Shown here: piece after piece, positions 41,798 to 64,000 of the stretch | Layout of the letters: each line of letters begins with the position of its first letter | How positions within the stretch are numbered: the stretch's first letter is position 1 | Source: an uncultured Candidatus Saccharibacteria bacterium | GTDB taxonomy: Bacteria; Patescibacteriota; Saccharimonadia; CAILAD01; GCA-016700035 | DNA: 64,000 nucleotides | NCBI GenBank assembly: GCA_964583675.1 | Contig: CAZOVH010000001.1 | Coordinates: 81,754 to 145,753, forward strand | Direction of reading: 5' to 3' | The notes under the pieces: model-generated | Database searches by the model: none | Told to the model about the DNA's origin: nothing | The model's input: only the letters and a program-made list of their open reading frames with translations | Made by a program: the position numbers and the translations under genes

Positions 41798-41801
41798 CGA
41801 T

Positions 41802-41874: not shown

Positions 41875-41900
41875 CAGGGCTAATGTGAGCCTTAATCACA

Positions 41901-41971: not shown

Positions 41972-42056
41972 CAACTGACTTCCACTCTCGTTGTTTTTGT
42001 AGCAGCGCCGCCAACGCTGCTCTCTGCTTGCAGAAAGCAAGGAAACGGGAAGTCAG

Positions 42057-42566: not shown

Positions 42567-42632
42567 TCACAGTTTGCCCTCAGTATTCTTTTTTCGCTAT
42601 AGTGATTGCAACACTTACTAAAAGGAAAACTT

Positions 42633-43319: not shown

Positions 43320-43388
43320 CCAAGCTAGCTCAAACCTAGAAAAACTGTAAAAATCAGGTATAATATTCCAGTTCGACCTCAGCTATCT

Positions 43389-43479
<91 letters not shown>

Positions 43480-47835: not shown

Positions 47836-47850
47836 GAAAACCTAGGATTT

Positions 47851-48228
47851 TTACGCTGCAAACTGACCGAGTACAAAGTTAACAATCGCATAGGCAAGAA
47901 GGGCTACAACGATACCGATAACCGCATAAAGAATGGTGTCTTTAGCAGCCTGGGTGTTTTGTGAGCTACCACCAGAGAAGATGTAACGGAAACCACCAAC
48001 GATGAGCATAATCACCGCAACTACACCAATAACAAAGAGCATGGTGTTGGTGATGGTTTGAATATTTGCTACAAGATCAGTCTGCTGATCGTCACCCTTA
48101 GCAGCACTTGCACCTTCGTTAATTCCGCCTACTGCGGCTGAAGCGTGTCCTGCAAGTGAAGCTGCCACTACGGCATTACCAGCCAGCACGAGTGAACCTT
48201 TTTTAAGTAAATCTTTTGCATTACGCAT
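47851..48228 (-). CDS. TrbC/VirB2-like pilin paralog (125 aa)
   Basis: Same architecture and a near-identical C-terminal motif (NTQAAKDTILYAVIGIVVALLAYAIVNFVLGQF). Confidence 0.6.
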   Translation of the reverse strand: MRNAKDLLKKGSLVLAGNAVVAASLAGHASAAVGGINEGASAAKGDDQQTDLVANIQTITNTMLFVIGVVAVIMLIVGGFRYIFSGGSSQNTQAAKDTILYAVIGIVVALLAYAIVNFVLGQFAA

Positions 48229-48363
48229 ATTGTGTATTGTCTCCTTGACTTCTAATAATAGCTAAGTGGGCGAGTGCACACTACTAGGCACATTCTACTG
48301 CAAGGAGAGATATATCAGCAAGCGTTATGGGCAAAATTCTTATGCTTGCACTAAGAAAAGTCT

Positions 48364-48924
48364 TTAACGGAACTGGGCACTTACAAAGCTTATGATGGCC
48401 GTCCCGAGCAGTGCAACGCCCACGCCAATGACTGCGTAGAGAATCGCATCTTTTGCTGTCTTCGTCTTACCAGGATCACCAGCAGATGTTACGTACAGGA
48501 TTCCGGAAACGATAATCATAATCACCGAAGCCGCGCCAATCACCCACAAGAATAGCTGAATGCCAGAATTAACCACGCTTTGAACATTTGTAGCACCCGC
48601 AACAACCGGCAAGAAGAAATCAACAACTGCACGCGCAATTATCGCAATCACAAAACCAATTACGGTATAAATAATTGACTGAATTGCCAGCTTAGTTCGG
48701 TCAGGACGTCCGGCAGAAATTACAAACATAAAACCCGAGTACACAATCATTACTACGCCAACTACACCAACTACCCAAAGTAGGAAAGTAAAAAGATTAT
48801 TTACCAGCTGGGGAAGTGTGGCTGGACCACTGGCAAACTGAGTCGGTTTATACGTTGGCAAAGGCAAATTCGTCGCCTCTGCCGCGACATACAGCTTAAT
48901 CCCTAGTTCCTGAAAAACATTCAT
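48364..48924 (-). CDS. tandem double-domain VirB2-like pilin (186 aa)
   Basis: Two consecutive pilin-like units (RTKLAIQSIIYTVIGFVIAII... and KTKTAKDAILYAVIGVGVALLGTAIISFV). Confidence 0.55.
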   Translation of the reverse strand: MNVFQELGIKLYVAAEATNLPLPTYKPTQFASGPATLPQLVNNLFTFLLWVVGVVGVVMIVYSGFMFVISAGRPDRTKLAIQSIIYTVIGFVIAIIARAVVDFFLPVVAGATNVQSVVNSGIQLFLWVIGAASVIMIIVSGILYVTSAGDPGKTKTAKDAILYAVIGVGVALLGTAIISFVSAQFR

Positions 48925-48929
48925 GCCAT

Positions 48930-49790
48930 TTATCCCGTTATTACTCTGCCAATTAAACTAAATATCAGACTAACAGAAGCAACTCCAAGTAAGCCGATTA
49001 CCGCATACGTAATGATCTTACGGGCGGACTGAATAGATTGTGGGTTTCCAGCAGCGGTCATCATTCTTATACCACCAACAATTATCATCGTTACAGCCAG
49101 CGCGCCACCTATAAATTGTATGTACTGCCAAGCTGCCGCAATCAACTCAAGGATGGTGTTTTGATCAAAGTTATTGAGATCTACCCCTAAAAAGCGTCCT
49201 CCGCCAGTCACACCAATAAGATCGAGCGTTACGCGGGCTGCAAAGAAGAGCGCAATGCTCGAAGCGGCCAACGTAATACGTTTCTTGCCAGCCTTAAGTG
49301 CTTCTGGCGATGCACCACCGGTAATAACCTGCACCATGCCAAGCCCAATCATAATCGCAAAGACAATTACGCCAATATTCAAAATATAGTTTGTGAGATT
49401 TTCTACTATTGACTGAATCGCAGTCTGGTCATTGCCTCCAGTACACAGAGTAGACACAAAGCCACTACTAATAATTTGCCCATCAGCCTTAATGTCGTTA
49501 CACGTACCCTTAACAGACTGTGGGTTGTTGAGTCGCTCATTTTCGGCATTCGTACTTGTGCCATTACCAACTGGCTCGCTCCGAGCTGGACCTTTCGTTC
49601 CTGGAGGGAGATTCTCAGAACATACCAGCGCACCATCAGCGCCTTCTTTATATGTTCCGGCGGCTCCACCCGTCAAAGTACAGGGCTGTCCAGCTAGCTT
49701 TGCAGGGTCGGCATATGCCACTGGCGCAGTATATATATGTAGGGCGAGAAGGAGAGTGGCTGGCAATAAGTACGCAAGGCGGCTTTTCAT
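48930..49790 (-). CDS. secreted Cys-containing domain fused to two VirB2-like pilin units (286 aa)
   Basis: Signal peptide, an extracellular domain of about 120 aa with 4 Cys, then two pilin-like TM hairpin units (KKRITLAASSIALFF..., ARKIITYAVIGLLGVASVSLIF). Confidence 0.5.
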   Translation of the reverse strand: MKSRLAYLLPATLLLALHIYTAPVAYADPAKLAGQPCTLTGGAAGTYKEGADGALVCSENLPPGTKGPARSEPVGNGTSTNAENERLNNPQSVKGTCNDIKADGQIISSGFVSTLCTGGNDQTAIQSIVENLTNYILNIGVIVFAIMIGLGMVQVITGGASPEALKAGKKRITLAASSIALFFAARVTLDLIGVTGGGRFLGVDLNNFDQNTILELIAAAWQYIQFIGGALAVTMIIVGGIRMMTAAGNPQSIQSARKIITYAVIGLLGVASVSLIFSLIGRVITG

Positions 49791-49832: not shown

Positions 49833-52800
49833 ATGAATATTCTTTCCAAAAAACTGAATATATTTCAGCAGGGGGCGCTGTTTGGCGCTGTTTTTTTCCT
49901 TTTATTTTTAGTTTCTATTTTAGTTGCGCCATCAGCGAAAGCAGGACCAAATAGCCCTACTGAATATGAAGGGTCTGATTCTACTCAATGCCAGTGGGTG
50001 GCCGACTCAAAAATTGTCTGCGGTACAGGGGAGTGGTGGTTTGATATTAATCAATCAGTATCTCTTGGCTATCCGGTATATAAAAGTTCTGACACCTCTA
50101 ATTCGTACATAGTTTTTGATAGCAATGGTGAAAATGGTGAGCTCACAAAAGACCCTGCTCAAAAAACAAACGGGACTGATGCATTTTTAGGAGAAAAACA
50201 GGTACGTAATAATCGCCTGTGGGCAAATGACGACAACTCTAGCGACCCAGTTGATAACGGCATGAGTGCACCACCTAACGGTGAGCATTATTATTGTGGC
50301 CTAAAATCCAAGACTGAAGAGGAATGCTTCGATGGGAGGGGCGGCTCACTTATAAAAGTCACTCAAGATCAGGGCGATAAAATTACGGCCATGCGCGATC
50401 AAATAGAAGAAACAATAGGTTCAGAAGAAGATTGCACAGAAGATGCAGGCTCATTAGGTTTTGTACTGTGTCCAATACTGAGCACCACACGCAATGCGGT
50501 TGGTGCACTCATTGGAGACGGAACGGGTAAAGGGTTTCTAGTCGAACTACTTACTATAAGACCCTTAAGCTCCACGAATACGCCAGAGCTCTACAATGGG
50601 TGGCAGGCTGTAAGAAATATTGCATTAGGCCTATACATTTTAGTCTTTGTATTAATTATTTTTGGTAACGGTATTGGCTATGACCCCTACACGATTAAGA
50701 GAGCGCTGCCTCGACTGGCAGCCGGCGTTGTTTTAACATTTGCCTCTTGGTGGATCATGCAAACACTTGTAGATCTATCAAACCTTGTAGGCAATGTTAT
50801 CCCCGCATTTGTGGCACAGATTTCAGGTAATGCCGGAATTGCAGACTACGCAATCGACCTAAACCCTGCCCTTGCCTTGAGCTCCGTAATCCTCCTAATT
50901 GTGGTTGCTTTTATCGCCCTTGGAGCCTTGCTAGTTGGTCTTGCCGGTTTAATTATGCGCATCGTGATTATTTATGCTCTCGTACTTTTAGCCCCTGTCG
51001 CGTTTATTGCCTGGGTACTCCCAAACACAGAAGGCCTCTTTAAGAAGTGGTGGAAAAACCTTATTAAGGTACTCATGATGTTCCCGATAGTTACAGGCAT
51101 GCTCTCTCTTTCATTGTTCTTCCAGACCATCCTACTCAATACGCAAACAGACGCTGCTGGCAACAGTAATGGATTAGGAGGGTCAGCCTCCAACTCGGTA
51201 ACCGGTATTGTTGGTATGCTTGCACCACTCATAGCAATTATCATGATCCCTAAAACCTTTAAATGGGGCGGTGAAGCCTTTGCTGCAGCAGCTGGATATA
51301 TGGCAGGAAAGGCAAGTGGAGTTGCAGGTAAAATATCTGATGCACCCAAAACAATCGGAGGCAAAGCTGCAGGTAGTGCAAAAGAACGTATGCTCGCAAG
51401 CGACAAAACTGCTGCCCTCACTGGCGCAATGGCCTCTAGTCGATTGGGTCGACTTGCGGGCGGTAAAGCCGCCATGAGATCAAGTGGTAGAGCAAGAAGC
51501 AGGGTTATTGGCGAGGCAGAAAGCCTAACAAAGAATATGACAAACGACCAGCTTGAAAAGATCGCTAAAACCGGCACACAAGAAGAGAGAATTGCCGCAA
51601 TTGGCCAGCTCGCAAAACGCAAGGATAGAGGTAAGCTCGCCTCCTTATCGCAGGCAGGCGGTAAAACTGCAAGAGCTTATGACGAAGCTAGTAGTAGGCA
51701 TGCTGGTGAGTTTGGAGGCAATGCTGACCTGCGCCGCATCGGCGGTAAATTCACGAACGTTGGAGACATGTCTACCGAAGATGCGGCCGGAATGAATGCA
51801 GACGGTTTCGCCGCAGGACTCGCAACAGGTGCAATATCTCACGCCACTGCGCAAGCAATCTACAATAATGACCGTACCCGAGCATCTCTTTCGCCTCAAA
51901 AACTACATGACCTTACAACATATTTATCATCTGGAGGAACAACCGACAAGGATGGAAATAGAATTACAGTACAAGGCAGAAACTCTCGCGTTGCCGATGC
52001 AAAAATAGAAGCAACCACTCCTAGTTACAATGCAGAAGGCAAGCATGTCGGCCAGAGAGTTACGTTTAAGGGTGATTCTGAATTACAAAATGCCCTCAAT
52101 GTAGCTGGATCAAATCGAGGCGTAACCACCACATCTGCTAGTGGTACTCCTCAGCCCACAGCAACTACCGCTCCAGCACGTCCAGCTCCACCACCACCTC
52201 CACCATCAGGAGGAACTCCAACTTATACTACCCCTGCGGGCGCACCAACCTACACAACAACGGGTACGCCAGTTCCACCACCACCAAGTGGCAATGTGCC
52301 AGTTTGGAGCAATCCAACTGCACCACCACCTCCGCCGCCAAGCGGTAGCACTGGTGGAACACCTCCGCCTTACACAGGCCCAGCTGCGCCATGGCAGCCG
52401 GCTCCCGGTTCGCAAACACCGCCTCCACCACCAAGTGGAGGGGCACCTACCGGCACGAACGGTGGAGGCACAGTCATAAACAATGTCACCAACGAAAATT
52501 CAACGACGAATAACAACTCGACCACCAACAACGTAAAAACCGTTCTCAACAACAACGGCATACCAAGTTCGATTGCGCTTGGTGCAGCCACACAGCTTGG
52601 AAGTGCCAAAAATCGCTTCGGAGCAGGATCAGCCGAACACGACGGCCTAGCCGGCATTGAAAGTAAGCTCAATGATCTGGGTCGTATGATTCAGTCCGGA
52701 TCACTCAGTCAAACTCGATTGCGAGAAAATATCCGTGACATCCACCGCGATATTGATGACCTACCACCAGGTGCACATGACCAACAAGATAACCTACGTG

Positions 52801-52847
52801 GCGTCCTCACAAACATCGAGCGCAATGCCACCGACGACGAGGCGTAA
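49833..52847 (+). CDS. VirB6/TrbL/PrgH-like polytopic T4SS channel protein with long Pro-rich and Asn/Thr-rich C-terminal extension (1004 aa)
   Basis: Signal peptide, an extracellular Cys-containing domain of about 250 aa, at least 6 TM helices (residues about 270-480), then a disordered tail with PPPPPSG repeats. Confidence 0.55.
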   Translation: MNILSKKLNIFQQGALFGAVFFLLFLVSILVAPSAKAGPNSPTEYEGSDSTQCQWVADSKIVCGTGEWWFDINQSVSLGYPVYKSSDTSNSYIVFDSNGENGELTKDPAQKTNGTDAFLGEKQVRNNRLWANDDNSSDPVDNGMSAPPNGEHYYCGLKSKTEEECFDGRGGSLIKVTQDQGDKITAMRDQIEETIGSEEDCTEDAGSLGFVLCPILSTTRNAVGALIGDGTGKGFLVELLTIRPLSSTNTPELYNGWQAVRNIALGLYILVFVLIIFGNGIGYDPYTIKRALPRLAAGVVLTFASWWIMQTLVDLSNLVGNVIPAFVAQISGNAGIADYAIDLNPALALSSVILLIVVAFIALGALLVGLAGLIMRIVIIYALVLLAPVAFIAWVLPNTEGLFKKWWKNLIKVLMMFPIVTGMLSLSLFFQTILLNTQTDAAGNSNGLGGSASNSVTGIVGMLAPLIAIIMIPKTFKWGGEAFAAAAGYMAGKASGVAGKISDAPKTIGGKAAGSAKERMLASDKTAALTGAMASSRLGRLAGGKAAMRSSGRARSRVIGEAESLTKNMTNDQLEKIAKTGTQEERIAAIGQLAKRKDRGKLASLSQAGGKTARAYDEASSRHAGEFGGNADLRRIGGKFTNVGDMSTEDAAGMNADGFAAGLATGAISHATAQAIYNNDRTRASLSPQKLHDLTTYLSSGGTTDKDGNRITVQGRNSRVADAKIEATTPSYNAEGKHVGQRVTFKGDSELQNALNVAGSNRGVTTTSASGTPQPTATTAPARPAPPPPPPSGGTPTYTTPAGAPTYTTTGTPVPPPPSGNVPVWSNPTAPPPPPPSGSTGGTPPPYTGPAAPWQPAPGSQTPPPPPSGGAPTGTNGGGTVINNVTNENSTTNNNSTTNNVKTVLNNNGIPSSIALGAATQLGSAKNRFGAGSAEHDGLAGIESKLNDLGRMIQSGSLSQTRLRENIRDIHRDIDDLPPGAHDQQDNLRGVLTNIERNATDDEA

Positions 52848-52849
52848 TT

Positions 52850-53689
52850 ATGGGGCAATATAAAGTACCTCAAAACGTAGAGAGCGAAGACAGACTCCTA
52901 GGCCCCTTAACGATGAAGCAATTCATCTACGCTATCATTGGGCTCGGGTGGGGATTCCTTATTTGGCGTATTCTTTCACCGGGAGGCACTGCTGCAATCC
53001 CTATCATGCTACTACTCATTGTGCCGGTTTCTGGTTTTATGCTCCTCTTGGCATTCGGTAAAAGGGAGGAGCAGAGTTTTGAGAATTACCTCATCGCCCT
53101 CATTCGTTTTAGTGTTGTACCGCGCAAACGCATTTGGCTAAAAGACGACTTTAAGGGTGAGGTGATTATCGATGCACCGCCGCCGCCAAAGCCCATGGCG
53201 CCAACTAAAGAAGATATCGCCCATGTTCACAGTCGACTTCAGCAGCTCTCGCTAGTTGTAGACACGCGTGGACACGCCAAGACTCCAGATGTTCAGCTGG
53301 CCGACCAAACAAATCGGGCTGCGGAATTTTCTCAACGCGTTTTTACACCGCCAGAACTCCAAAAGCCCATCCTGGAAGGGGGAGTACAAGAACAAGATGA
53401 CGTATTAGCAACAACAGAAGCGTCAGCCGCTCAAGCGCAAAAAGTTGATGAGCTACTACAAAACCAAGAGTACTCGATTCGTGAAGAGGCTATGAAAAAG
53501 ATGACTCAGGCCGTCGAAAATCCCGAATCTCAGGCCGTCGAAACCCCTACACAACCCTCCCAGCCACCAGCTGATAATGCTATACTGAAAAAGGTTATGG
53601 ATGCACCCCACCTAAGTGTGGCCCAGGTAGCCCAAGTGGCTAATCGTGGGCAACTCGCACAAGGCCAGGAAATCCAAATCCAACAATAA
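52850..53689 (+). CDS. PrgI/VirB3-like T4SS membrane protein (279 aa)
   Basis: N-terminus MGQYKVPQNVESEDRLLGPLTMKQFIY plus two TM helices, matching the conserved PrgI-family start (VP.D.E.ED...GP.T.RQ). Confidence 0.5.
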   Translation: MGQYKVPQNVESEDRLLGPLTMKQFIYAIIGLGWGFLIWRILSPGGTAAIPIMLLLIVPVSGFMLLLAFGKREEQSFENYLIALIRFSVVPRKRIWLKDDFKGEVIIDAPPPPKPMAPTKEDIAHVHSRLQQLSLVVDTRGHAKTPDVQLADQTNRAAEFSQRVFTPPELQKPILEGGVQEQDDVLATTEASAAQAQKVDELLQNQEYSIREEAMKKMTQAVENPESQAVETPTQPSQPPADNAILKKVMDAPHLSVAQVAQVANRGQLAQGQEIQIQQ

Positions 53690-53835
53690 AACGTATAAAA
53701 CCAAGACAGAAGACCCTCTAAATAACAAAATCTTTGAAGGTTGCTGTCTTTTTTTGTTATGATGATATATTCGTCACTCACCAGTAATGCAGTGATGAGG
53801 GTGTTCAAAAGTAAAAGAGGGAGAGAGAAGTTCGC

Positions 53836-54753
53836 ATGCCACAGGAGGCTGCCAAAACTCCACAACAAATTGAATATGAAAAGTCGATCACTCCCGCCAA
53901 GGAGCCGAAAGACCAACGTACCAGCACGCAAAACCACCTGATGTTCACCGAAATTAAGGATGGCATCGTCGTAATGCGTGATGGCTCTTTGCGTATGGTC
54001 GTACTTGCGAGTGCACTCAACTTTGACCTCAAAAGCCCCCAAGAACAGGATGCTATCGAGTACGCATACCAAGGCTTCCTTAATGGCTTACACTTTCCAA
54101 TTCAGATTGTTGTACGCTCACGTAAGCTCGAGCTTGACGGCTACCTTGAAAACCTTGAAGTTCTTCAAGCCAACCAAGAAAACCCTCTTCTAGCTGGACT
54201 AATGGAAGATTATATTTACAATATTCGCGGCCTCTTAGAACAAGTAAACATCATGAATAAAGAATTCTATGTTGTTGTACCGTATTATCTGGATGTTACC
54301 TCTAAAAAGAAAGATAATGCCGGCTTTAAACTTGCGAGCTTATTTAAGACCAACACCGATACCATGCAAACCACGGAGATGTTTGAGCAGCGTAAGCGAG
54401 ACTTAATTCAACGTACCAACCTGGTTGCCCAAGGCTTGGCTCAGCTTGGTATTCGAGCAGCTGTTCTCTCCACACAGGAGATTACTGAGCTCTTCTATAC
54501 GGCGTATAACCAAGAAGAAGCTACCAATCAAAATCTTGTAGATATCGAGCAAATGACGACGCCGGTTGTAGAACGTAGTGATGCCGATCCAGAACCATAT
54601 AGCGGCGCAACCTATCATGAGCCAGAGCCTGACGATCTATACTCTGCTGCCACGCAAATACCTCAGCCAGCACCAGCACCAACGCAACAAACTACGCAGC
54701 CACCAGTAGCTCAGCAGCCACCGCAAAATCCACTAATTGGGGGAGGGGTATAA
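53836..54753 (+). CDS. hypothetical T4SS-associated protein (305 aa), translationally coupled to virB4 (TAATG)
   Basis: SD GAGGGAGAGAGAAG. The stop overlaps the virB4 ATG. Gln/Pro-rich C-terminus. Confidence 0.4.
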   Translation: MPQEAAKTPQQIEYEKSITPAKEPKDQRTSTQNHLMFTEIKDGIVVMRDGSLRMVVLASALNFDLKSPQEQDAIEYAYQGFLNGLHFPIQIVVRSRKLELDGYLENLEVLQANQENPLLAGLMEDYIYNIRGLLEQVNIMNKEFYVVVPYYLDVTSKKKDNAGFKLASLFKTNTDTMQTTEMFEQRKRDLIQRTNLVAQGLAQLGIRAAVLSTQEITELFYTAYNQEEATNQNLVDIEQMTTPVVERSDADPEPYSGATYHEPEPDDLYSAATQIPQPAPAPTQQTTQPPVAQQPPQNPLIGGGV

Positions 54754-56660
54754 TGGCGCGCAAACCAAAAGTAGATCCAGCTCAGCAGGCAGCCATCGAC
54801 ATGGCTGCGGCCCAACAGCAAGAAGCTGAACGTGCCTATCGCGAAGGAATCTTAACTCTACGTGACATTATTGCGCCAAGCTCGTTTACTATAGAGAACA
54901 ATTATCTCATTATTGGCACTCGCTATGTGCGCACATTGTTTGTGTACGGCTATCCACGCACCCTATTTACCGGTTGGCTCTCGCCAATTATCAACCTCGA
55001 TGAGGTTATTGATATTTCGCTCAATATCATGCCGGTCGAAAGTCGTGTAGTACTTGAGAACCTCAAGAAAAAAGTAGGTCAACTCGAAGCCTCTGTGCAA
55101 ATTAACGCCGAAAAAGGTAAGATTCGCGATCCAGGACTAGAAGCTGCCATTGGTGACGCCGAAGAACTTCGTGACAAGCTCCAAGTAGGTGAAGAACGCT
55201 TCTTCCGTTTTGGGCTTTACATCACGCTCTACGGAAAGGATATCGAGGAACTCGATCTTATTCAACGCAAAATTGAATCCATCCTCGGAACAAGCCTCGT
55301 CTACACAAAACCAGCTAGCGTTCAGATGGAGCAGGGCTTTAACTCGACGCTCCCAATTGGCACCGATCAGCTTGGCATCTACCGCAACATGAATACCGGC
55401 TCACTCTCAACCAGTTTTCCGTTTACCACCGCCGAACTCTCTCGCAATGAAGGGGTTATGTATGGCTTAAACCGCCACAACAACGGTCTAGTGCTATTTG
55501 ATCGATTTAGCTTAGAAAATGCCAATATGGTTGTATTTGCAAAGTCTGGTTCTGGTAAAAGCTTTACCGTAAAGCTCGAATGCTTACGCTCACTTATGTT
55601 GGGTGCGGAAATTATTATCATCGATCCAGAGAACGAGTACCGCACACTGTGTGACGCAGTAGGCGGGAGCTACATTCACTTGTCGCTCGCCAGCAACACG
55701 CGCATTAACCCGTTTGATATTCCAACCACGGTTGATCCCGAGGAAGCCGACAACGCACTGCGCGCAAACATCATCATGCTGCACGGCTTACTGCGCCTGA
55801 TGTGTGGCAAGCTTGAGCCAGCAGAAGAAGCAGATTTGGATGTTGCGCTTATCAATACGTATGCCCAAAAAGGCATCACCAACGATCCGCTGACACACCG
55901 TAGCCAGCCACCTGTAATGAGCGATTTGTATAACACACTTATCACAATGGGTGGCACCGGCCCAGCAATCGCCGCTCGTCTACGTCGCTACACCGAGGGT
56001 ACGTTCTCTGGAATCTTCTCGCAACAATCAAACGTTCAACTCGACAATAAATTTGTAGTCTTTAATATTCGCGACCTAGAAGATGAACTACGCCCAATTG
56101 GCATGTATATCACCCTCAACTACATTTGGAACCGCGTAAAAACCGACCGACGTAAGCGCATCTTAGCTGTAGACGAAGCTTGGCAGCTCATGAAGCATCC
56201 AGACTCAGCATCGTTTATGTTCTCAATCGCTAAGCGCGCTCGTAAGTATTACCTCGGCCTCACAACCATCTCGCAGGACGTGGAAGACTTCTTAAATGAT
56301 CGCCTGGGACGTGCCGTAGTAAACAACAGCTCTTTGCAAGTTCTCCTAAAACAAGCACCGTCCGCTGCCGATGTTGTTGCCGAAACATTCAAGCTAACGA
56401 GCGAAGAAAAAAACCGCCTTACTCAGTTCCCGGTAGGAGAGGGATTATTCTTTGCTGGTTCTAACCACGTGGTTATTCGCATTTTGGCGAGCCCCATGGA
56501 AGAGCAGCTCATCACCACCAATCCGCAGCAACTCCTTGAGCGACAAATGCGCGACCAAGAAGAAGCTCAATTACAAACCGCAGAACCGGCCCCAGAATTA
56601 CAACAGGCAGTTCCAGAACCACCGGCAACCTACCAGCAGCCAGGAGGGCAGGTTAGCTAA
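54753..56660 (+). CDS. virB4: VirB4/TraE/PrgJ-family T4SS ATPase (635 aa, Gram-positive type)
   Basis: N-terminal APSSFTIENNYLIIGTRYVRTLFVYGYPR, Walker A VVFAKSGSGKSF, Walker B ILAVDEAWQLM. Confidence 0.85.
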   Translation: MARKPKVDPAQQAAIDMAAAQQQEAERAYREGILTLRDIIAPSSFTIENNYLIIGTRYVRTLFVYGYPRTLFTGWLSPIINLDEVIDISLNIMPVESRVVLENLKKKVGQLEASVQINAEKGKIRDPGLEAAIGDAEELRDKLQVGEERFFRFGLYITLYGKDIEELDLIQRKIESILGTSLVYTKPASVQMEQGFNSTLPIGTDQLGIYRNMNTGSLSTSFPFTTAELSRNEGVMYGLNRHNNGLVLFDRFSLENANMVVFAKSGSGKSFTVKLECLRSLMLGAEIIIIDPENEYRTLCDAVGGSYIHLSLASNTRINPFDIPTTVDPEEADNALRANIIMLHGLLRLMCGKLEPAEEADLDVALINTYAQKGITNDPLTHRSQPPVMSDLYNTLITMGGTGPAIAARLRRYTEGTFSGIFSQQSNVQLDNKFVVFNIRDLEDELRPIGMYITLNYIWNRVKTDRRKRILAVDEAWQLMKHPDSASFMFSIAKRARKYYLGLTTISQDVEDFLNDRLGRAVVNNSSLQVLLKQAPSAADVVAETFKLTSEEKNRLTQFPVGEGLFFAGSNHVVIRILASPMEEQLITTNPQQLLERQMRDQEEAQLQTAEPAPELQQAVPEPPATYQQPGGQVS

Positions 56661-59600
56661 TGCTTCGCCTGGAGGGTGACTCACAGGACCCACTTACTAG
56701 CTCTCGACACTACAAGGATATTAAGAGCGCCAGTAAGCAGTCCAACACAGGGCCAGGTTCTATGGCCGACAAGGCTGCCAATGGGCATATAGATAGTCTT
56801 TCTTCAGCAGGCAAGAAAGGTAGTGAAGCCGCTACAAAAGGTGCTTCTAGTGCTAATAGTACGGCGTCGAAAGGTGCTTCCAGTGCCGGCGCCAGTGCTT
56901 CGAAAGAAGCCGGGAAAGCCGCAGCTGATGCAGCAGCTAAGAAATCCATTTCCAAAGCAGTAGGAAAATCACTTGGTAAAGGCCTAAATGTAAAAGGCGA
57001 TATTGATGATGTAAAGAGAACAGCCAAAGAAGATGGTGCTGCTGCGGCTGCGGCTGCGGCAGGCCTTAAAGCCGCCGAAACGGTTGCCTCAAAAGTACCA
57101 ATCGCCTCGCAAGTTGCGACTGCCATCCGCGCGGGACAGGCCGCCCTGGCTAAAGTAGGCATCAACATTAAAGATCAGTACATTATGTACGCACTCTTGT
57201 TGGCTCCAATTCTCGCCCTTGTGCCAGTGATGGTTTTTGCACTCGTTGTCTTCTTCGCCTGGAAAAACCCTCAAGCCATCCTGAAGCTATCATTTACTAA
57301 TTTTAAAACTTTTGTTGGCGCAGCCCAGTCACTCGTAATCGAAAACGGAGGTGCCTCAAAGATGGCTTACGAGGTTGAAGTAGGAGGCAACCGAGCAGTC
57401 GCAGCTCCAGGTGATGTAGCGAAGCCAGAGGAAGGCACATATGAATATAAGTTGGCCCAAATAGACTGGGAAAAGGCAAAATATCAAACCCTCCCACTTG
57501 ATAGTCGCTGCGAGATCAAAACGAAAAAAGTCGTTTCCGTACTTGATGGAAAAGAACGTTCAGTTATCGAATCTGTAGAGCTAAATACAAACCCCGGCAA
57601 AGACCTGCAGGGAGTGGCTAGAGCTAACTGCATTAATAATACATATCCGATTTGGAACACCATGATGCGATCTCAGTTTGTGCGTGATGGCGTGAATAAA
57701 AACCTCAATGTACGCTACGCCTATGCTGAGCCGCAAGATTCAACTACATTGAGCGAACCTTCTGACGAATTCTCAACCACCCTCCGCGACAAAACTCTCA
57801 CCAGAATATGGAATCGTGGCCAAGCTATCAATAAACCCATTCAATCCACACCTGAAGAGGTTACGGCAAATGATGAAGAAGTAAAACGCTTCTTCACTAA
57901 CACCCGAGAAGTTCAAAAGTACGCAAAAGAAACTAATATCGCAAAATATAGCGACGAAGTAATTAGCTGTGCTGATATGTATGTCCCGAAAGGTGATAGC
58001 TACTACCAAAAAGATATAGACAAAATGAATCATGACTTGGCATGTGGCATTAACCCAAAAGATATTCTATTGTATACGACTAGCCCGTCTGAAGACCTCA
58101 TTAATGACTCGGACCCATTAATCGCCATTAAACCAAAGCGAGCAGCACTCAATGTAGTTTGCGATCTCTACTATAATCTTCTCGCCCCAGACAGTGACTA
58201 TGCTCCGGCAGTAGATAAGTACCGACAAAAAGTAAAAGACCGCATCAACTCTGCGGCTGTTGCTGGCTGGCAAGCTATGACATATGCCGATACGCATCAA
58301 AAAAGATTTATAGATCTTAAAGAGCTGGGCGGAGACTTTTATAAAATTTCCGGTATACAAGAAGGTCAAGAATATAACTATGCACTGGATTACCGTAAAA
58401 ATGGAGTTGCACTCGAGCCTGATGCCATCTCCCGCATTGTTGGCTACTACAACAAGCAAGCAGACGCCATTCCAGCCATCCAGCAAGAAAAGCAATATCA
58501 AGATGCATTAAACCTAGTCTTCACATACGTGACGTCAGGCGGCGATGCCTCTCCTTGTGATGCAGCTCGAGATACTGGCGAATTCGATAACACAAATAAT
58601 AATGATCCTCAGAGAAACGCAAAAATTAGCACTTTTTATAGTGATGTGTATCCCGCATTCAAAAAGGCAATCGCTGGAATAGATTTCTACGCCAACCCAT
58701 CACAAAGCAAATCTGTAAGCCAAATTTATAAAGACCTAACCTACGAAGACCTCCGTTTCCGATTAATTCGTATTGAGTCTAATGCTGCCACCGCCGGCAC
58801 CGAAGATGGCCCTCAAAACTTTAATCGTATGAATTTCGGCATGAAAGCCTACACAAACGCTTTTACTCTTTCAATGGGTGGAAACTTTCTCACTCAAAAC
58901 GAAGCTATCAGCCGCGATGAATCAACTCGAGTAGCGAGATACTATGACGATAAAACAAAGGGGATTGCCTGGCGCTTCTTTAACCTGGATAACCCCGGCT
59001 CATTTGCCAGCCGACTCGCTGTAGCCTCGACTGATAAGCCACAAAATATACCTGGCAACATCACAGGTACTTTGGCCTATATTATGAATCCCATCAGGAA
59101 CGCTGCGGGAGAAAATGGCACGCTAACTGCATTCTTAACCGGAGAAAGCCGAGTGGCCTCAGCCAGCTCCGTATATGATTCGGCTAATCTCAAGCTCGAT
59201 CCGGCTGGTATGCCAGAAGCATTTAATCAAATCAACCCAATCGAAAACGCTCGATACATTGAAAGTATAAAGAAGAATGATCCAACTCTTGCCACCGAAC
59301 TTGCTGGCTACGATCAGTGTTTTAAAGAGTTCCTTCCGAGCCGGTTCCATCTACTAAATCCACCTCCAGACAAAGTAGATCTATACAAAAACGTATGTAC
59401 GCCGCTCCTAGACAGTACTGCCACACGAGATCCAAATAGTCTCATCCTCCGCTACCGAGCCTATCACTTTCATATGCTCCAAGCCGATGCACTCGTATAT
59501 TTGTCAGACCCCAATAAGGAAGATCCCAACTTCAGCGCACCAGAGGGCGGAAGTACAACAAACCCTGTCGCAACTACCCCCACCGACGGAACACCAACCA

Positions 59601-60076
59601 ATCCGAGTGGTGACACCTCGGCATTACAATGCCCACCAGGAACTACCGACGCGGGTGTCGGTGAAAAATTTGGCGTCGGCCGCGTGCTCATGCATCGACT
59701 TAGGCTCTGTAACGTACAGGGGATTACCGTAAATGTTTCTATTGCCAATTCACTAAATGCTATGCTTACAGAAATGAAAGGAGCTAGTATTAATTTGGGC
59801 GGTTGGGGCTATCGAACATTTGATAAACAGGTTGAGCTCAGAACTACAAATGGCTGTCCCGACACCTACAATAGTCCGGCAAGTACGTGCGGAACTCCAA
59901 CTGCACGTCCAGGACAATCGAATCATGAAAATGGAGAGGCGATCGATTTCACTTCCGGAGGGTCAACATTGCGTAGCGGAACTCCAGGCTTCAACTGGCT
60001 TAAAGCAAACGCCGCACGCTACGGGTTTAAAAATCTGCCTTCAGAATCATGGCACTGGTCGATTAATGGAAAATAA
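56660..60076 (+). CDS. large membrane-anchored surface protein with C-terminal LAS/M15 (VanY-like) peptidoglycan peptidase domain (1138 aa)
   Basis: Ala/Lys/Ser low-complexity N-terminus, TM at about residues 180-205, and a C-terminal SNHENGEAIDF (SxHxxGxAxD) plus ESWHW (ExxH) motif. Confidence 0.55.
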   Translation: MLRLEGDSQDPLTSSRHYKDIKSASKQSNTGPGSMADKAANGHIDSLSSAGKKGSEAATKGASSANSTASKGASSAGASASKEAGKAAADAAAKKSISKAVGKSLGKGLNVKGDIDDVKRTAKEDGAAAAAAAAGLKAAETVASKVPIASQVATAIRAGQAALAKVGINIKDQYIMYALLLAPILALVPVMVFALVVFFAWKNPQAILKLSFTNFKTFVGAAQSLVIENGGASKMAYEVEVGGNRAVAAPGDVAKPEEGTYEYKLAQIDWEKAKYQTLPLDSRCEIKTKKVVSVLDGKERSVIESVELNTNPGKDLQGVARANCINNTYPIWNTMMRSQFVRDGVNKNLNVRYAYAEPQDSTTLSEPSDEFSTTLRDKTLTRIWNRGQAINKPIQSTPEEVTANDEEVKRFFTNTREVQKYAKETNIAKYSDEVISCADMYVPKGDSYYQKDIDKMNHDLACGINPKDILLYTTSPSEDLINDSDPLIAIKPKRAALNVVCDLYYNLLAPDSDYAPAVDKYRQKVKDRINSAAVAGWQAMTYADTHQKRFIDLKELGGDFYKISGIQEGQEYNYALDYRKNGVALEPDAISRIVGYYNKQADAIPAIQQEKQYQDALNLVFTYVTSGGDASPCDAARDTGEFDNTNNNDPQRNAKISTFYSDVYPAFKKAIAGIDFYANPSQSKSVSQIYKDLTYEDLRFRLIRIESNAATAGTEDGPQNFNRMNFGMKAYTNAFTLSMGGNFLTQNEAISRDESTRVARYYDDKTKGIAWRFFNLDNPGSFASRLAVASTDKPQNIPGNITGTLAYIMNPIRNAAGENGTLTAFLTGESRVASASSVYDSANLKLDPAGMPEAFNQINPIENARYIESIKKNDPTLATELAGYDQCFKEFLPSRFHLLNPPPDKVDLYKNVCTPLLDSTATRDPNSLILRYRAYHFHMLQADALVYLSDPNKEDPNFSAPEGGSTTNPVATTPTDGTPTNPSGDTSALQCPPGTTDAGVGEKFGVGRVLMHRLRLCNVQGITVNVSIANSLNAMLTEMKGASINLGGWGYRTFDKQVELRTTNGCPDTYNSPASTCGTPTARPGQSNHENGEAIDFTSGGSTLRSGTPGFNWLKANAARYGFKNLPSESWHWSINGK

Positions 60077-60079
60077 CGC

Positions 60080-61990
60080 ATGAAAATAAGAAAACTACAT
60101 TTCAATAAAGTAAAAAATAGATTTATTCGTTTGACGTATATCGTTTCTACATTACTTCTTATTGTGACACCAGCTCAGGCCGCAAGCGAACAGCGCAGAG
60201 ATATTGAGCGTACTCCTTTTTATGACAAGAACGCCGAACTAATTTGCGGAGCTGCGGGGACAACACAAGCAGCAGGAGGCGGGGGACTTATCGTTGGGGG
60301 AACAGTCTATTATCTCGGTGATTCAATCGGCGAAGGAGTTAAGACTCCTCTTGAAAAAAATCTTACTGCAGCTGGCTATAAGGCCGTCGTAAATGCAAGT
60401 AATTCTCGCTCTATCAGTGGTCCGGGAAGAGATGGATCGTCTGGCTTGGAAGCGGCAGCGAAAGACGCCGCCGTGATTCAAGGCGCTCAAGTGGTAGTTA
60501 TTGAGCTCGGCACAAATCCAGAGTCGAATGGTGATTTCGCAGGCAATCTTAATAACCTGGTCACACAAATTAAAACGGCCGGCCCACAGGCAAAAATCTA
60601 TCTCGTAGATGTTGCCGTAACGGCCGAACAGGCTGCTCGACTCGGATCAGCTAATGTAAATAAGGCCATTTATGCAAAGGCCGCAGAGCTCGGTACGCCA
60701 GTGATAAGTAGATTTAAAATTTATTATCCTGGGGGTAATCCGGAAACCTTTGAAAATACTGCAAGCCCCGCATTACCATTTGATGCCGCTGGAATTCATA
60801 GCCCTAACTCGCAAGGTTATGAAGCGCTTGCGGGAGTCATCCAGACCAGCATCACCACCTCGAGTGCACTCGCAACACCAAGCACATCCGACCCCTGTCA
60901 GTGTCCAGTTTCAGGAGGCGCCGGAGGAAGCGCAGCTACAATTAATCTTGCCGGTAACGACAATGTCGAGAAAGCATTTAACTTCTTCGTAAGCAAAGGC
61001 TTCTCACCGCAACAATCTGCCGGGATAGTAGGCAATCTGATTGCAGAATCGGGTGTAAATCCAAAACGAGTGCAGAGTACACCGACACCTGAAGGGGATA
61101 AAGATAATATTACAGTTAATAATAAAACGGGCTACGGCATCGCCCAATGGACCTCTTCTGGACGACAACAAGGTTTGGTTGATCTCGCTCGTTCGCGGGG
61201 CATGACTATCGAGGGTGATCTTGCACTTCAGCTCGACTATCTCATGATTGAGCTTACTGTTGGCTATAAAGACGTATATGATGCCATCAAACTCTCTGCA
61301 GATCTTAAGGCGGCTTCAGACGTATTTATGACTAAATTTGAGCGCCCTGCAGATCAAAGTGAAACTGCTCGGCAAAAACGTGCCAGCATGGGACAACAGG
61401 TACTAGATCTGTATGGCAACGGCGCAAGCGCCAGTGGTGCTCTCATTAGCGGCGCAACAAACTGTAATACTGGAGCGGGAGGTCAGGCGGCCGGCTTCGT
61501 AGGCTTCCCACTCCAAACTACTAAAGCGCGAATGACCGAGCTAAATGGCGGTCAGTTTAAGAATGGAGTGATGGGACAAGGCGGACACCCGTATGCGGCT
61601 CACGACATTATGGCCGACCCTGGAACTCCGGTAGCTGCAATTCTGTCGGGTAAGGTTGTACAAGTAAGCACAGATAAGTGCCCGGGGAGACTTATCGCAG
61701 TTTGGAGTGAACAGGTAGGCGTTACCGTCGCATATCTACACATGTCTATTGAGCAAACAATAGTGAAAGAGGGTGATTCTATCGCCGAAGGTCAAATTAT
61801 CGGCTTTGTTGGGCCACCAGCAGCTGGCTGCGGAACCCCACACCTCCATATTGATGCCAATACTACCAACCGTAGAATTGGGTGTAAGCGTGAAAGTTGC
61901 TCTACAGAAAATAAAGCACTCTTCCAGGCTGGGAGCGATAAAATTGGGTTACCAAAATCACTTTTCGATAGCTATCAGCGACTACCATAA
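60080..61990 (+). CDS. three-domain cell-wall hydrolase: SGNH/GDSL hydrolase + phage-tail-lysozyme-like + M23 peptidase (636 aa)
   Basis: Signal peptide; GDSIGEG (SGNH block I); GNLIAESGVNP...GYGIAQWTSSGR (lysozyme-like); HPYAAHDIM...HLHID (M23 HxxxD and HxH). Confidence 0.6.
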   Translation: MKIRKLHFNKVKNRFIRLTYIVSTLLLIVTPAQAASEQRRDIERTPFYDKNAELICGAAGTTQAAGGGGLIVGGTVYYLGDSIGEGVKTPLEKNLTAAGYKAVVNASNSRSISGPGRDGSSGLEAAAKDAAVIQGAQVVVIELGTNPESNGDFAGNLNNLVTQIKTAGPQAKIYLVDVAVTAEQAARLGSANVNKAIYAKAAELGTPVISRFKIYYPGGNPETFENTASPALPFDAAGIHSPNSQGYEALAGVIQTSITTSSALATPSTSDPCQCPVSGGAGGSAATINLAGNDNVEKAFNFFVSKGFSPQQSAGIVGNLIAESGVNPKRVQSTPTPEGDKDNITVNNKTGYGIAQWTSSGRQQGLVDLARSRGMTIEGDLALQLDYLMIELTVGYKDVYDAIKLSADLKAASDVFMTKFERPADQSETARQKRASMGQQVLDLYGNGASASGALISGATNCNTGAGGQAAGFVGFPLQTTKARMTELNGGQFKNGVMGQGGHPYAAHDIMADPGTPVAAILSGKVVQVSTDKCPGRLIAVWSEQVGVTVAYLHMSIEQTIVKEGDSIAEGQIIGFVGPPAAGCGTPHLHIDANTTNRRIGCKRESCSTENKALFQAGSDKIGLPKSLFDSYQRLP

Positions 61991-62004: not shown

Positions 62005-62793
62005 ATGAATAAACTCTCCACTCAAGCCAAGCTGATTATCGGACTCTCATTCGTAACCCTAGTATTGCTCTGCGTGATGATATATGTGCAGTTCGTTCAG
62101 TTTCGTATTGTTAAATCTACCCCCGATACAAACAACTACCCAAGCACAATGGGCCTACTCGTATTGGAGTTTAATGAAAAATTAGACGCCAAGGCTATTC
62201 AGGATGCATACAATAAAGATGCAGCAAGTGTTATAAAGTTCAGTTTTGATAGCCCAGCCTATATAGAAGTGTATGATAAGACTCTCAAGATAACGATTCA
62301 GGAAACTGCTAAAGAAGGTAAGTACAAACTTCTACTTAATAATATTAAGTCTGAAGATGGAAGCATCTTTAAGCGAGAGATTCCTTTTGTCGTTAAGAAT
62401 ATTGCATACAATGACATGCCTGAAGAAACCCAGAAACTTTTTAATGAATATGCCTCAGAGGGAGAGACCCTACCTCAAGATCCAATCGTGGGAGTACTCC
62501 CTTATCAGACAGATAAGTATAAAATTAGTTATGTTTTTCCAGAAGAAGACGTCGAGATACCTGCAACAATAACTATTACCATGAAATTCTTTGAGCCGGG
62601 TGACAATGCATTACCAGAAACGCCAGCCCAAAGACAAGCTTACTTAAACGACCTCAGAAAATATCGGACCGAAGCATTAACCTACCTGAAAGAAAAAGGT
62701 ATAGATATTAATAACTATGTCATTAAATACACAGAGTTTGATCTACAAAACGAATTTCCGACTGGCTACGTCGCTCAACCAGAAACCGAATAG
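62005..62793 (+). CDS. membrane-anchored extracellular protein (262 aa); positional VirB8/PrgL-like candidate
   Basis: N-terminal TM anchor plus an extracellular domain, placed after the hydrolase genes as prgL is in pCF10-type loci. Low GC (about 38%). Confidence 0.35.
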   Translation: MNKLSTQAKLIIGLSFVTLVLLCVMIYVQFVQFRIVKSTPDTNNYPSTMGLLVLEFNEKLDAKAIQDAYNKDAASVIKFSFDSPAYIEVYDKTLKITIQETAKEGKYKLLLNNIKSEDGSIFKREIPFVVKNIAYNDMPEETQKLFNEYASEGETLPQDPIVGVLPYQTDKYKISYVFPEEDVEIPATITITMKFFEPGDNALPETPAQRQAYLNDLRKYRTEALTYLKEKGIDINNYVIKYTEFDLQNEFPTGYVAQPETE

Positions 62794-62801
62794 TTCACCA
62801 A

Positions 62802-63074
62802 TTATCCAATACGTATAAAAATTTTTTCTAGTTTTTGACCAGTTTTCTTTACTATTTCGCGTTCTATCTGAATTTTACGCATGCGGATTTCACTAGCCTC
62901 AACCGGGTGGCCAACGGTTATGCGCAGTAAACCCTCGTTAAAACTCACCGAATCAACTGTCACTCCCGACCGTCTTTTTATAATCTCTTTAACTGTCTTA
63001 AAGAATTGTAAAATATCAAACTGTGCATCTAAATTCTTACGCGACAGACTGTCGCCAATTCTTTCAAAACTCAT
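62802..63074 (-). CDS. DUF721-family small protein (DciA-like), downstream of recF
   Basis: 90 aa with a 4-nt overlap with the recF stop. Typical recF-DUF721 synteny. Confidence 0.45.
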   Translation of the reverse strand: MSFERIGDSLSRKNLDAQFDILQFFKTVKEIIKRRSGVTVDSVSFNEGLLRITVGHPVEASEIRMRKIQIEREIVKKTGQKLEKIFIRIG

Positions 63075-64000
63075 ACTGGAGGCCTCGTTAAGTCGAGTGT
63101 TTGCGCCGGCAGCTTAAGTCGCTTATCAATATCAGTACTCGTAATCACTGTCTGAATCTCGGACAGTTCGCTAATGAGTTGGCGGCGGCGAGATTCATCA
63201 AGCTCACTAAACACGTCATCTAAAAGAAGGAGCGGCTGACGATCTTCACTTTTTTGCTTAACGTATTCTAGTTCAGCAAGCTTGAGTGCTAGAAGTGCTG
63301 TGCGTGTCTCCCCGCGCGAGGCCATGCTCTGGATCGGATAGCCGTCAAACCATAGCGACCAATCCTCGCGATGTGGGCCCACCGTGGTTGTGCCCAAAGC
63401 GACATCGCGCTGGCGAGCTGCCGAAATGCGCTGCATAAAACTAGAACTCTTCTCATTAAATTCTAGTTTTAGCTTATGTTCTCGCTTGGCAATCCTCGGT
63501 ACCACCTCAGCCAGAATAGTGGCTAAGTCCGCAATCAATAATTCCCGATGCTGTGAAATTTCTTCAGCAACAGGAGCTAGTTGAGTCTCTAAGATAAAGA
63601 GCTGATCATCAAGTTCAGTAATAGGCGAGCGCTTATTGCGCCACAAAAGTGAGTTGCGCTGTTTTAAAATTCTGCGGAACGATAAAAAATTACTGCGATA
63701 ATGCTCGTCGGTCTGCGTCAGAACCACGTCCACATAGCGTCTACGGCGCTCTGGAGAGCCGGCAAGTAAGTTTAGGTCATTGGGCTCAAACAAGACTACA
63801 GGATGTCTACCAAGTAGCGTAGAACGCGAAATCTTAACGGCATTACGTTCAAACTGCTTAGATTTACGTGGCGTAAGTCGAGACACTACTCGAATCTGCT
63901 CATCATCATACGTTGCCTCTACTACGTAGCCATCCTGGCCATGCGCAACTAGCTCTTCATCATCTCCACGAAATGACCTACCTGTTGCGGCCACATACAT
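63071..64000 (-). CDS. recF: DNA replication and repair protein RecF (C-terminal about 300 aa; N-terminus beyond window end)
   Basis: SMC-like motifs SRGETRTALLALKLAELEY (signature) and LLLLDDVFSELD (Walker B/D-loop). The ORF is open to position 64000. Confidence 0.8.
   Translation of the reverse strand: MYVAATGRSFRGDDEELVAHGQDGYVVEATYDDEQIRVVSRLTPRKSKQFERNAVKISRSTLLGRHPVVLFEPNDLNLLAGSPERRRRYVDVVLTQTDEHYRSNFLSFRRILKQRNSLLWRNKRSPITELDDQLFILETQLAPVAEEISQHRELLIADLATILAEVVPRIAKREHKLKLEFNEKSSSFMQRISAARQRDVALGTTTVGPHREDWSLWFDGYPIQSMASRGETRTALLALKLAELEYVKQKSEDRQPLLLLDDVFSELDESRRRQLISELSEIQTVITSTDIDKRLKLPAQTLDLTRPPV

Follow-up and report, generated by a model that had tools for sequence, protein, structure and literature searches.

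Two predicted cell-wall hydrolase genes downstream of virB4 in a chromosomal type IV secretion cluster of a Saccharibacterium

The chromosomal type IV secretion system (T4SS) cluster of an uncultured Candidatus Saccharibacteria bacterium includes, directly after virB4, two genes that probably encode dedicated peptidoglycan-remodelling components of this machinery. Both of them, referred to below as gene 1 and gene 2, lie on the + strand of the window analysed, a stretch of 64,000 nucleotides (nt) of contig CAZOVH010000001.1. The T4SS is of the Gram-positive type (MPF-FATA-like), and its functional counterpart of VirB1, PrgK, TraG or CwlT would be distributed over two proteins. Indeed, the features of T4SS hydrolases are split between them, with the lysozyme and M23 modules carried by gene 2 and the transmembrane (TM) segment and a further peptidase by gene 1. 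The initial annotation of this DNA had described two multidomain hydrolases at 56660-61990, and both open reading frames (ORFs) are exactly as described (1138 and 636 amino acids, + strand). Its four domain assignments (M15/VanY, SGNH, phage-tail lysozyme and M23), for which it had proposed a check with hidden Markov models, all score above the Pfam curated cut-offs. The profile-to-PDB search and the predicted folds agree with every one of them. Domains, residue conservation, topology features, gene order and module swapping are seen directly in the sequences, alignments and models described here.

56660-60076, + strand: gene 1, an ORF of 1138 amino acids (ORF list, Pfam VanY match, position after virB4; positional equivalent of SEML1_0007).
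60080-61990, + strand: gene 2, an ORF of 636 amino acids, predicted secreted three-module wall hydrolase (ORF, Pfam, structural model; positional equivalent of SEML1_0006).

In the saccharibacterial case, a carrier bacterium was for the first time shown to depend on its own T4SS for survival, and the role of this T4SS is called completely unknown in reviews. In Candidatus Southlakia epibionticum, the T4SS cluster SEML1_0006-0019 was found by transposon sequencing (Tn-seq) to be essential for epibiotic growth (Wang et al., Cell 2023; PMC10633639). The genes following virB4 are among the few T4SS components with a predictable chemistry and thus offer a direct experimental way in. The residues proposed for mutation are S82, E323 and H503/D509/H554/H588/H590 in gene 2, and H1089/D1096/E1129/H1132 in gene 1.

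Domain architecture of the two proteins

Gene 2 combines a predicted signal peptide with three catalytic-type modules. In its AlphaFold2 (AF2) model, with a mean predicted local distance difference test score (pLDDT) of 71, three folded modules are separated by disordered linkers.

60080-60181, + strand: residues 1-34, predicted Sec-type signal peptide (basic n-region, hydrophobic core, AQA/AS; read from the sequence).
60290-60865, + strand: residues 71-262, SGNH/GDSL esterase-fold module with Ser82, Gly116, Asn146 and His240 (Pfam, conserved blocks, pLDDT of about 88).
60947-61423, + strand: residues 290-448, phage-tail-type lysozyme, a predicted muramidase (Pfam, profile match to gp13, pLDDT of about 80).
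61547-61987, + strand: residues 490-636, M23/LytM metallopeptidase module with H503 (displaced), D509, H554, H588 and H590 (Pfam, folds, pLDDT of about 80).

The signal peptide is probably cleaved between AQA and AS. The lysozyme gives the strongest Pfam match of the three modules, with Phage_lysozyme2 (PF18013) covering residues 294-445 (E = 2.5e-32, 112.4 bits for a cut-off of 28.2). In the alignment of 16 family sequences from which all residue conservation in gene 2 is taken, Glu323, within the motif GNLxAESGVNPKR, is invariant down to 25% overall identity and is the likely counterpart of the catalytic Glu of phage phi29 gp13. The N-terminal domain of gp13 is matched with E = 2e-4 by the single sequence and 3e-9 by the family profile. 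CwlT was considered as the closest solved relative of this module and rejected, as no CwlT entry is found among the matches and phi29 gp13 is.

The M23 module is recognized by Peptidase_M23 (PF01551) over residues 507-597 (E = 1.2e-13, 51.5 bits for a cut-off of 28.7), and M23 structures match the family profile down to E = 6e-17. Its relatives by sequence and fold include lysostaphin, LytM and ShyA, with Csd1 added by Foldseek, and the degenerate LytM regulators DipM and EnvC are also among the fold and sequence matches. Residues D509, H554, H588 and H590, the last two within HLH 588-590, are invariant.

The SGNH module matches Lipase_GDSL_2 (PF13472) over residues 79-248 (E = 9.7e-9). Conservation is complete or at least 90% for G80-D81-S82, G116, G144-T145-N146 and H240, and the GDS(L) block announced in the initial annotation is thus confirmed at 80-82, accompanied by GTN at 144-146. 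Foldseek neighbours of the module are OatA-C, PatB, Campylobacter jejuni Cj0610c, an acetylxylan esterase and BT3161, the first four with E values from 5e-7 to 1e-5 and TM-scores to the target of 0.6-0.67. The best sequence-profile match is 6wn9, labelled 'Acetyltransferase' (E = 5.5e-6). With the SGNH enzymes acting on O-acetyl groups (OatA-C, PatB, Cj0610c, acetylxylan esterases), the module shares the fold and the Ser of block I, the Gly of block II, the Asn of block III and the His of block V, but the identity is only 13-21% and the Asp of its triad is not at His-3. An O-acetyl-esterase role is plausible from these structural neighbours.

Gene 1 is built differently, its peptidase domain being located at the extreme C-terminus.

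56660-57184, + strand: residues 1-175, Ala/Ser/Lys/Gly-rich tail of net charge +10 (composition; median identity of 27%; pLDDT below 50).
57185-57301, + strand: residues ~176-214, the sole TM segment (Kyte-Doolittle 172-208, peak 2.91; helices 173-227 in the model).
57302-59539, + strand: residues 215-960, conserved, mostly alpha-helical core (alignment, model, null searches).
59540-59659, + strand: residues 961-1000, Thr/Pro/Gly-rich flexible linker (T 25%, P 17%, G 15%; pLDDT below 50 at 949-983).
59660-60073, + strand: residues 1001-1138, VanY/LdcB-like (M15B) zinc peptidase domain (Pfam, profile, Foldseek, motifs).

VanY (PF02557) is matched over residues 1024-1124 (E = 4.9e-10, 39.7 bits for a cut-off of 25). 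As initially stated, the protein ends in LAS motifs, namely SNHENGEAID at 1087-1096 (SxHxxGxAxD, with S1087, H1089 and D1096) and ESWH at 1129-1132 (ExxH, with E1129 and H1132). Both motifs are kept in every VanY-tipped homolog, and the first one lines up with its counterpart in VanY structures. The family profile finds VanY/VanXY/LdcB structures with E = 1e-7, and the last ~140 residues of the model (pLDDT 76-90) have BaLdcB, VanY-B, LdcB and DacB as best Foldseek matches (E from 3e-4 to 2e-2, prob 1.0). The NCBIfam LdcB model scores 24 bits, far under its cut-off of 275, which shows that gene 1 is not an LdcB equivalog. Thus, the tip shares the fold, SxHxxGxAxD and ExxH with the M15B carboxypeptidases VanY, VanXY and LdcB (DacB). 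The latter are small stand-alone enzymes of ~180-230 amino acids trimming stem peptides, whereas the domain stands here at the tip of a 1138-amino-acid membrane protein and is exchangeable with M74- and M23-type tips.

The description of this protein as a giant hydrolase had to be abandoned, since the peptidase part is only its last ~12% (~140 residues), the remainder being mostly a lineage-restricted ectodomain. From the positive-inside rule, the basic N-terminal tail is probably cytoplasmic. Beyond the membrane, over 150 columns of the core are invariant across 15 homologs, its eight Cys (C284/324/437/462/501/633/887/913) all among them, a pattern suggesting an extracytoplasmic, disulfide-bonded domain. 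The core has no Pfam match even at E<=10 and no NCBIfam or PHROGs match. The family profile searched against the PDB matched the VanY tip and left the core without a match, and all Foldseek/PDB matches of the model outside the tip have a prob of at most 0.1. The AF2 model, made from 15 sequences (mean pLDDT 55), presents an all-alpha core, confident only at ~390-510 and 850-950. Relatives of the core amount to 28 proteins in a profile search of 5.8 billion clusters and 43 among 1.84 billion cluster representatives in an exhaustive single-sequence phmmer search, nearly all of them 1000-1250 amino acids long. The core is seen only in proteins of gene 1 architecture and is restricted to T4SS loci of the Saccharibacteria type. 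In the Southlakia study, only residues 951-1105 of the gene 1 counterpart were classified (PMC10633639).

Gene 1 would be pictured as a bitopic membrane protein located most likely in or beside the T4SS, its ectodomain and Thr/Pro tether holding the zinc LAS-fold peptidase in the wall zone, where this tip may trim or cut stem peptides locally. The gene 2 product would be exported by Sec; its SGNH module would most plausibly strip the O-acetyl groups that shield N-acetylmuramic acid (MurNAc) from muramidases, its phage-tail-type muramidase would cut glycan strands and its M23 endopeptidase would cut peptide bridges. Acting jointly, the two proteins could open a local breach in the peptidoglycan for the passage of the T4SS channel and pilus. 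By analogy, the wall opened would be that of the cell itself, possibly together with the host wall at the contact site. Activities, bond specificities, localization at the T4SS and the wall targeted are all predicted from domains, gene position and analogy. The wall-breaching role suggested initially is consistent with the T4SS setting and with what has been published on orthologous and analogous genes.

Several points weigh against this reading. The Pfam match of the SGNH module is marginal, 3.5 bits over the cut-off (36.4 vs 32.9), and its block V lacks DxxH, reading D-AAGI-H with the triad Asp off register. Counted back from the His, this Asp stands at position -5 in the clade of the window, -4 in the P0016 group and -3 in P0009 and P0027; block V could be a case of a shifted acid or of a Ser-His dyad. 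The first zinc motif of the M23 module is HPYAAHD (H503-x5-D509) and not HxxxD, with Tyr505 at the position of the lysostaphin His. VanY/LdcB-type enzymes are typically carboxypeptidases, whose usual effect is to trim stem peptides and not to open the mesh, and the ~750-residue core of gene 1, of no recognized fold, is left unexplained. The assignment of SEML1_0006 and SEML1_0007 as orthologs of gene 2 and gene 1 is a judgement from position and architecture. Concerning VirB1, a point in favour is that peptidase and lysozyme homologues just downstream of virB4 may take its role, as proposed by Quinonero-Coronel et al. (PMC12102498). According to the same work, VirB1-profile matches outside Paceibacteria seldom accompany virB4, and different glycosidases could take over the function. 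As standard VirB1 profiles mostly miss the virB4-adjacent proteins of this class, the equivalence with VirB1 is functional, not homologous.

The displaced His, taken together with the degenerate regulatory LytM domain of PrgK, indicates that the M23 module might not be catalytic. Gene 2 would then function like PrgK with one active module, the muramidase, while M23 and possibly SGNH would be regulatory or binding modules; this alternative is regarded as rather unlikely. In PrgK, the muramidase alone is active in vitro, the degenerate LytM domain down-regulates it, and LytM and CHAP are modulators (PMC11323569). The absence of the canonical first HxxxD in gene 2 goes in the same direction, as do the presence of DipM and EnvC among the M23 matches and the conservation of the lysozyme, by far the highest of the three modules (median identity of 77% vs 61% for M23 and 43% for SGNH). 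However, D509, H554, H588 and H590 are invariant, and the invariant His503, present in each of the 14 close homologs (position 508 can be H, Y or F), stands two residues upstream of the usual position, whereas degenerate LytM domains normally lose their zinc residues and that of PrgK is devoid of both zinc motifs. Moreover, a canonical HxGxD is found in the distant relatives P0037 and P0041, which suggests a zinc site shifted rather than lost. Of the HxxxD/HxH pair read in the initial annotation, HLH 588-590 is therefore retained and the first HxxxD is not, the sole literal HxxxD being H588-D592 inside HLHID. More generally, most catalytic residues are invariant in the alignments, with the first M23 zinc His and the SGNH Asp off their canonical positions.

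Module exchange and divergence among relatives

Homologs of both hydrolase genes all belong to metagenome assemblies of Saccharibacteria, within the Candidate Phyla Radiation (CPR/Patescibacteria). In the same metagenome-assembled genome (MAG) loci, identity to the proteins of the window is 82-93% for VirB4 vs 38-55% for the 1138-residue protein and 36-58% for the 636-residue one. Whole modules are exchanged in gene 2, as shown by the following architectures, those of L004, L005 and L008 standing at the same syntenic position.

Window: SGNH + Phage_lysozyme2 + M23.
L004: SGNH + Phage_lysozyme2 + CHAP.
L005: SLT_2 + M23.
L008: SGNH + Glucosaminidase + a C-terminus without assignment.
Southlakia: Glucosaminidase-like + Phage_lysozyme2 + Cys-proteinase.

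More distant PF18013 relatives include Amidase_2 and VanY as further partners, according to precomputed domains. The layout survives the replacement of modules, which argues that the selected function is that of a glycan cleaver plus a peptide cleaver. Selection on gene 2 would thus maintain a glycan cleaver, a peptide cleaver and an accessory glycan-modifying module, the identity of each enzyme being free.

The tip of gene 1 is exchanged in a similar way. Among 32 proteins bearing the core, VanY tips are found in 15, M74 tips in six and M23 tips in five, the remaining six having no Pfam tip; no Cys-peptidase or amidase tip was detected among these 32 proteins. PF26571 is present in two others. 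Zinc peptidases of the M15, M74 and M23 families are all conventionally grouped under the LAS fold, MepA being a LAS enzyme, and this grouping reportedly goes back to Bochtler and colleagues in 2004. The clearest exchange is that of P0084, with 75% identity to gene 1 of the window in the core and 13% in the tip, which points to a recent cassette replacement. What selection seems to keep in gene 1 is a zinc peptidase on a tether, the particular enzyme being free to change.

Such exchanges may also be read as the signature of a host-directed toolkit, whose main substrate would be the wall of the actinobacterial host where the epibiont attaches. Their purpose would be the penetration of the pilus or channel, or the release of muropeptides, amino sugars and amino acids that the epibiont cannot make, and the exchange of modules would adapt the enzymes to the peptidoglycan chemotype or the defences of particular hosts. 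In the fullest version, a T4SS-anchored gene 1 stalk, formed by a new disulfide-rich helical fold of ~750 amino acids, would hold its exchangeable zinc peptidase out past the wall of the epibiont. Gene 2 would encode a secreted enzyme that deacetylates, cuts glycan and cuts peptide, and in both genes cassettes would be swapped by recombination, tracking host chemotype or defences. If so, both genes would help to determine the range of hosts and the acquisition of nutrients (amino sugars, peptides). We give the host-directed toolkit a low probability, and the same holds for its fullest version.

The arguments for such a toolkit are of several kinds. Both genes diverge far faster than the neighbouring VirB4 in the same loci, whole catalytic modules are replaced among relatives, as in P0084, and the lysozyme plus M23 unit resembles virion-associated hydrolases of phages, which act on walls from the exterior. 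A long ectodomain and a flexible tether carry the tip of gene 1. Epibiotic growth requires the T4SS cluster, in which no relaxase or coupling protein is recognizable (PMC12102498, PMC10633639). According to the literature, TM7x cannot make UDP-N-acetylglucosamine (UDP-GlcNAc), and its host, once infected, thickens its peptidoglycan from ~15 nm to more than 40 nm. Nevertheless, fast evolution and domain shuffling are general among secreted wall hydrolases, including those acting on the producer's own wall, and these pointers are not specific enough to decide which wall is concerned. CwlT also uses a phage-type muramidase and acts in the donor. PrgK likewise uses a phage-type muramidase while acting in the donor (PMC11323569).

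If module type tracks the wall type of the host, both genes would be candidates for determining host range; otherwise, they represent the lineage's version of the wall hydrolase carried by every Gram-positive-type T4SS.

Gene order and surroundings of the T4SS cluster

The setting in a T4SS operon, as annotated initially, is well founded. The two hydrolase genes are on the same strand as those for VirB6-like, PrgI, TrsD-like and VirB4 proteins; virB4 and gene 1 overlap by 1 nt, the gap between gene 1 and gene 2 is 3 nt and that between gene 2 and the following ORF is 14 nt.

47458-49790, - strand: four divergently transcribed T4SS pilin (VirB2-like) genes (Pfam T4SS_pilin, E from 1e-11 to 1e-20).
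49833-54753, + strand: a 1004-amino-acid polytopic VirB6-like protein, PrgI/VirB3 and a 305-amino-acid TrsD-like protein (PrgI Pfam match, weak TrsD NCBIfam match, TM segments, literature assignment for Patescibacteria).
54753-56660, + strand: VirB4-type ATPase (Pfam TraG P-loop, E = 1.4e-26; 82-99% identical across loci).
62005-62793, + strand: a membrane-anchored, probably Ig-like protein of 262 amino acids, last of the + strand run (TM segment, L004 homolog, position).

The + strand run stops at a convergent 90-amino-acid ORF and recF. The comparison of gene order covered ten MAG loci of Saccharibacteria plus four additional contigs, each scored as far as its length allowed. The order kept is that of the divergent pilins, then VirB6-like, PrgI, TrsD, VirB4, gene 1, gene 2 and the 262-amino-acid ORF, facing the 90-amino-acid ORF and recF.

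This arrangement bears on the idea that both genes encode housekeeping autolysins serving growth, budding or the separation of daughter cells, whose place near T4SS genes by the replication origin would be incidental. M23, VanY/LdcB and lysozyme-type enzymes are common in wall turnover and division, as reflected by NCBIfam names, and the essentiality reported in Southlakia (PMC10633639) is also compatible with a division role. However, the reading frames overlap or abut virB4, and the two genes are placed between virB4 and the last cluster gene in all loci examined. In addition, the core of gene 1 is confined to proteins of gene 1 architecture, and the pattern is that of Gram-positive T4SS clusters carrying their own hydrolase. 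A housekeeping function is thus considered highly improbable. An origin from a mobile element or prophage was rejected, the cluster being chromosomal, beside recF and kept in all loci.

The recF gene (63071-64000, - strand) continues past the end of the window, and its place beside the T4SS cluster indicates that the cluster adjoins the dnaA-dnaN-recF origin region, as in Southlakia; the literature suggests that an origin-proximal position could be a route to high expression. The 262-amino-acid ORF (62005-62793, + strand) has an N-terminal TM segment at residues 4-37 and no Pfam match, and its L004 homolog matches the Ig-like Big_5 domain. At its position, other loci have larger (438-442 amino acids) or extra PEGA-domain proteins. 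Its Southlakia counterparts are SEML1_0005 (PEGA/Ig-like) and SEML1_0004, both essential (PMC10633639).

Upstream of gene 1, the 305-amino-acid ORF (53836-54753, + strand) overlaps the start of virB4 by 1 nt and ends in a Pro/Gln-rich tail. Its match to TrsD/TraC-like proteins is weak (NCBIfam, E = 0.0018), and PF26593 (TraC-like) is precomputed in related contigs; this agrees with the description of a widespread, essential TrsD homologue in Patescibacteria (PMC12102498). In the pilin array, two paralogous duplicate genes of 125 amino acids stand side by side (47461-48051, - strand), with a 192-nt direct repeat that is 75% identical and 399 nt apart. Multi-pilin arrays are described in the literature as unusual for a monoderm T4SS.

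The closely related MAG of locus L001 has VirB4, PrgI and both hydrolases 95-99% identical to those of the window. Conversely, the VirB6-like protein of 1004 amino acids (49833-52847 vs 2972-5230 in L001) shows only 66% identity within residues 1-755 and an unaligned C-terminus, and one pilin (48364-48924) is only ~35% identical. This contrast is a strain-level hypervariability of surface-exposed T4SS parts. The VirB6-like gene also includes a Pro-rich repeat at 52172-52435. In a search for repeats or a diversity-generating mechanism, none was found touching gene 1 or gene 2, and only the paralogous pilins and this Pro-rich repeat were recovered. A scan for promoters and terminators gave counts equal to the shuffled expectation and is hence uninformative.

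Further upstream, eight tRNA genes on the + strand are grouped within ~4.4 kb (39065-43475). At 15440-18200, a block of ~64% guanine plus cytosine (GC) stands out from the ~46-54% GC found elsewhere. Its two ORFs, 16415-17074 (- strand, 219 amino acids) and 17199-18197 (- strand, 332 amino acids), have no Pfam match. The block, which adjoins a phosphoglucose isomerase gene (14386-15435), has the look of a foreign high-GC insertion, possibly from an actinobacterial host or a phage of such a host.

Comparison with known systems

The closest known locus is that of Southlakia ML1, and the gene pair is thus already noted, and essential, in a cultured relative. Its T4SS cluster includes pilins and no recognizable relaxase or coupling protein (PMC10633639). 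SEML1_0007 (3342 nt, 1113 amino acids) has a Hedgehog/DD-peptidase domain at 951-1105, and SEML1_0006 (1932 nt, 643 amino acids) combines PF01832, PF18013 (299-431) and a Cys-proteinase; both are essential by Tn-seq (PMC10633639). The arrangement is the same as in the window, with the order recF, 0004, 0005, 0006, 0007 and virB4 (0008) next to dnaA-dnaN-recF. Sizes are similar (1113/643 vs 1138/636 amino acids), the peptidase of gene 1 is only at the extreme C-terminus in both, and PF18013 lies in the middle of gene 2. However, SEML1_0006 starts with a glucosaminidase/lysozyme-like domain instead of SGNH and ends with a CHAP-like Cys-proteinase instead of M23. The SGNH module is thus not found in Southlakia, the only cultured reference.

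The closest analogues outside this lineage are PrgK and phi29 gp13. PrgK of the Enterococcus faecalis plasmid pCF10, a hydrolase of the DELTA class of Gram-positive T4SSs, is made up of a cytoplasmic N-domain, a TM helix, LytM, a phage-tail-lysozyme-like muramidase and CHAP, and is essential for conjugation (PMC11323569). Its gene also directly follows that of the VirB4 homologue, and it also gathers several extracellular wall-hydrolase modules, including an M23-fold LytM domain and a muramidase that has phage-tail lysozymes as nearest structures. Unlike in PrgK, which is a single protein, the anchor and tether (gene 1) are here separate from the three-module enzyme (gene 2), and gene 2 has a predicted signal peptide and no TM segment. 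The M23 module of gene 2 keeps four of the five residues, the fifth being shifted, whereas LytM of PrgK has lost both motifs. PrgK includes CHAP but no SGNH, LAS tip or 750-amino-acid core. The toolkit, called unusually rich in the initial annotation, is indeed multi-module, but its richness is relative, since PrgK has three wall-hydrolase modules and Southlakia has a glucosaminidase, a phage lysozyme and a Cys-peptidase.

In phi29 gp13 ('morphogenesis protein 1', PDB 3CSQ/3CSR), an N-terminal lysozyme of the same family is followed by M23, as in gene 2. Likewise, PHROG 11037 and several phage proteins of BFVD align across lysozyme and M23 jointly, over 330-590 columns, under names such as 'morphogenesis protein 1', 'lysozyme/metalloendopeptidase' and tape-measure proteins. 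However, gp13 is a tail-tip protein acting on the host wall from outside and has no SGNH module or signal peptide, nor does it belong to a secretion system.

With respect to these systems, module swapping under a fixed layout and the fast divergence of both genes compared to VirB4 are new here. The points of remaining interest are the lineage-restricted core of 750 amino acids in gene 1, the fixed layout with swapped modules, the non-canonical M23 site and the SGNH module that distinguishes gene 2 from SEML1_0006, PrgK and gp13.

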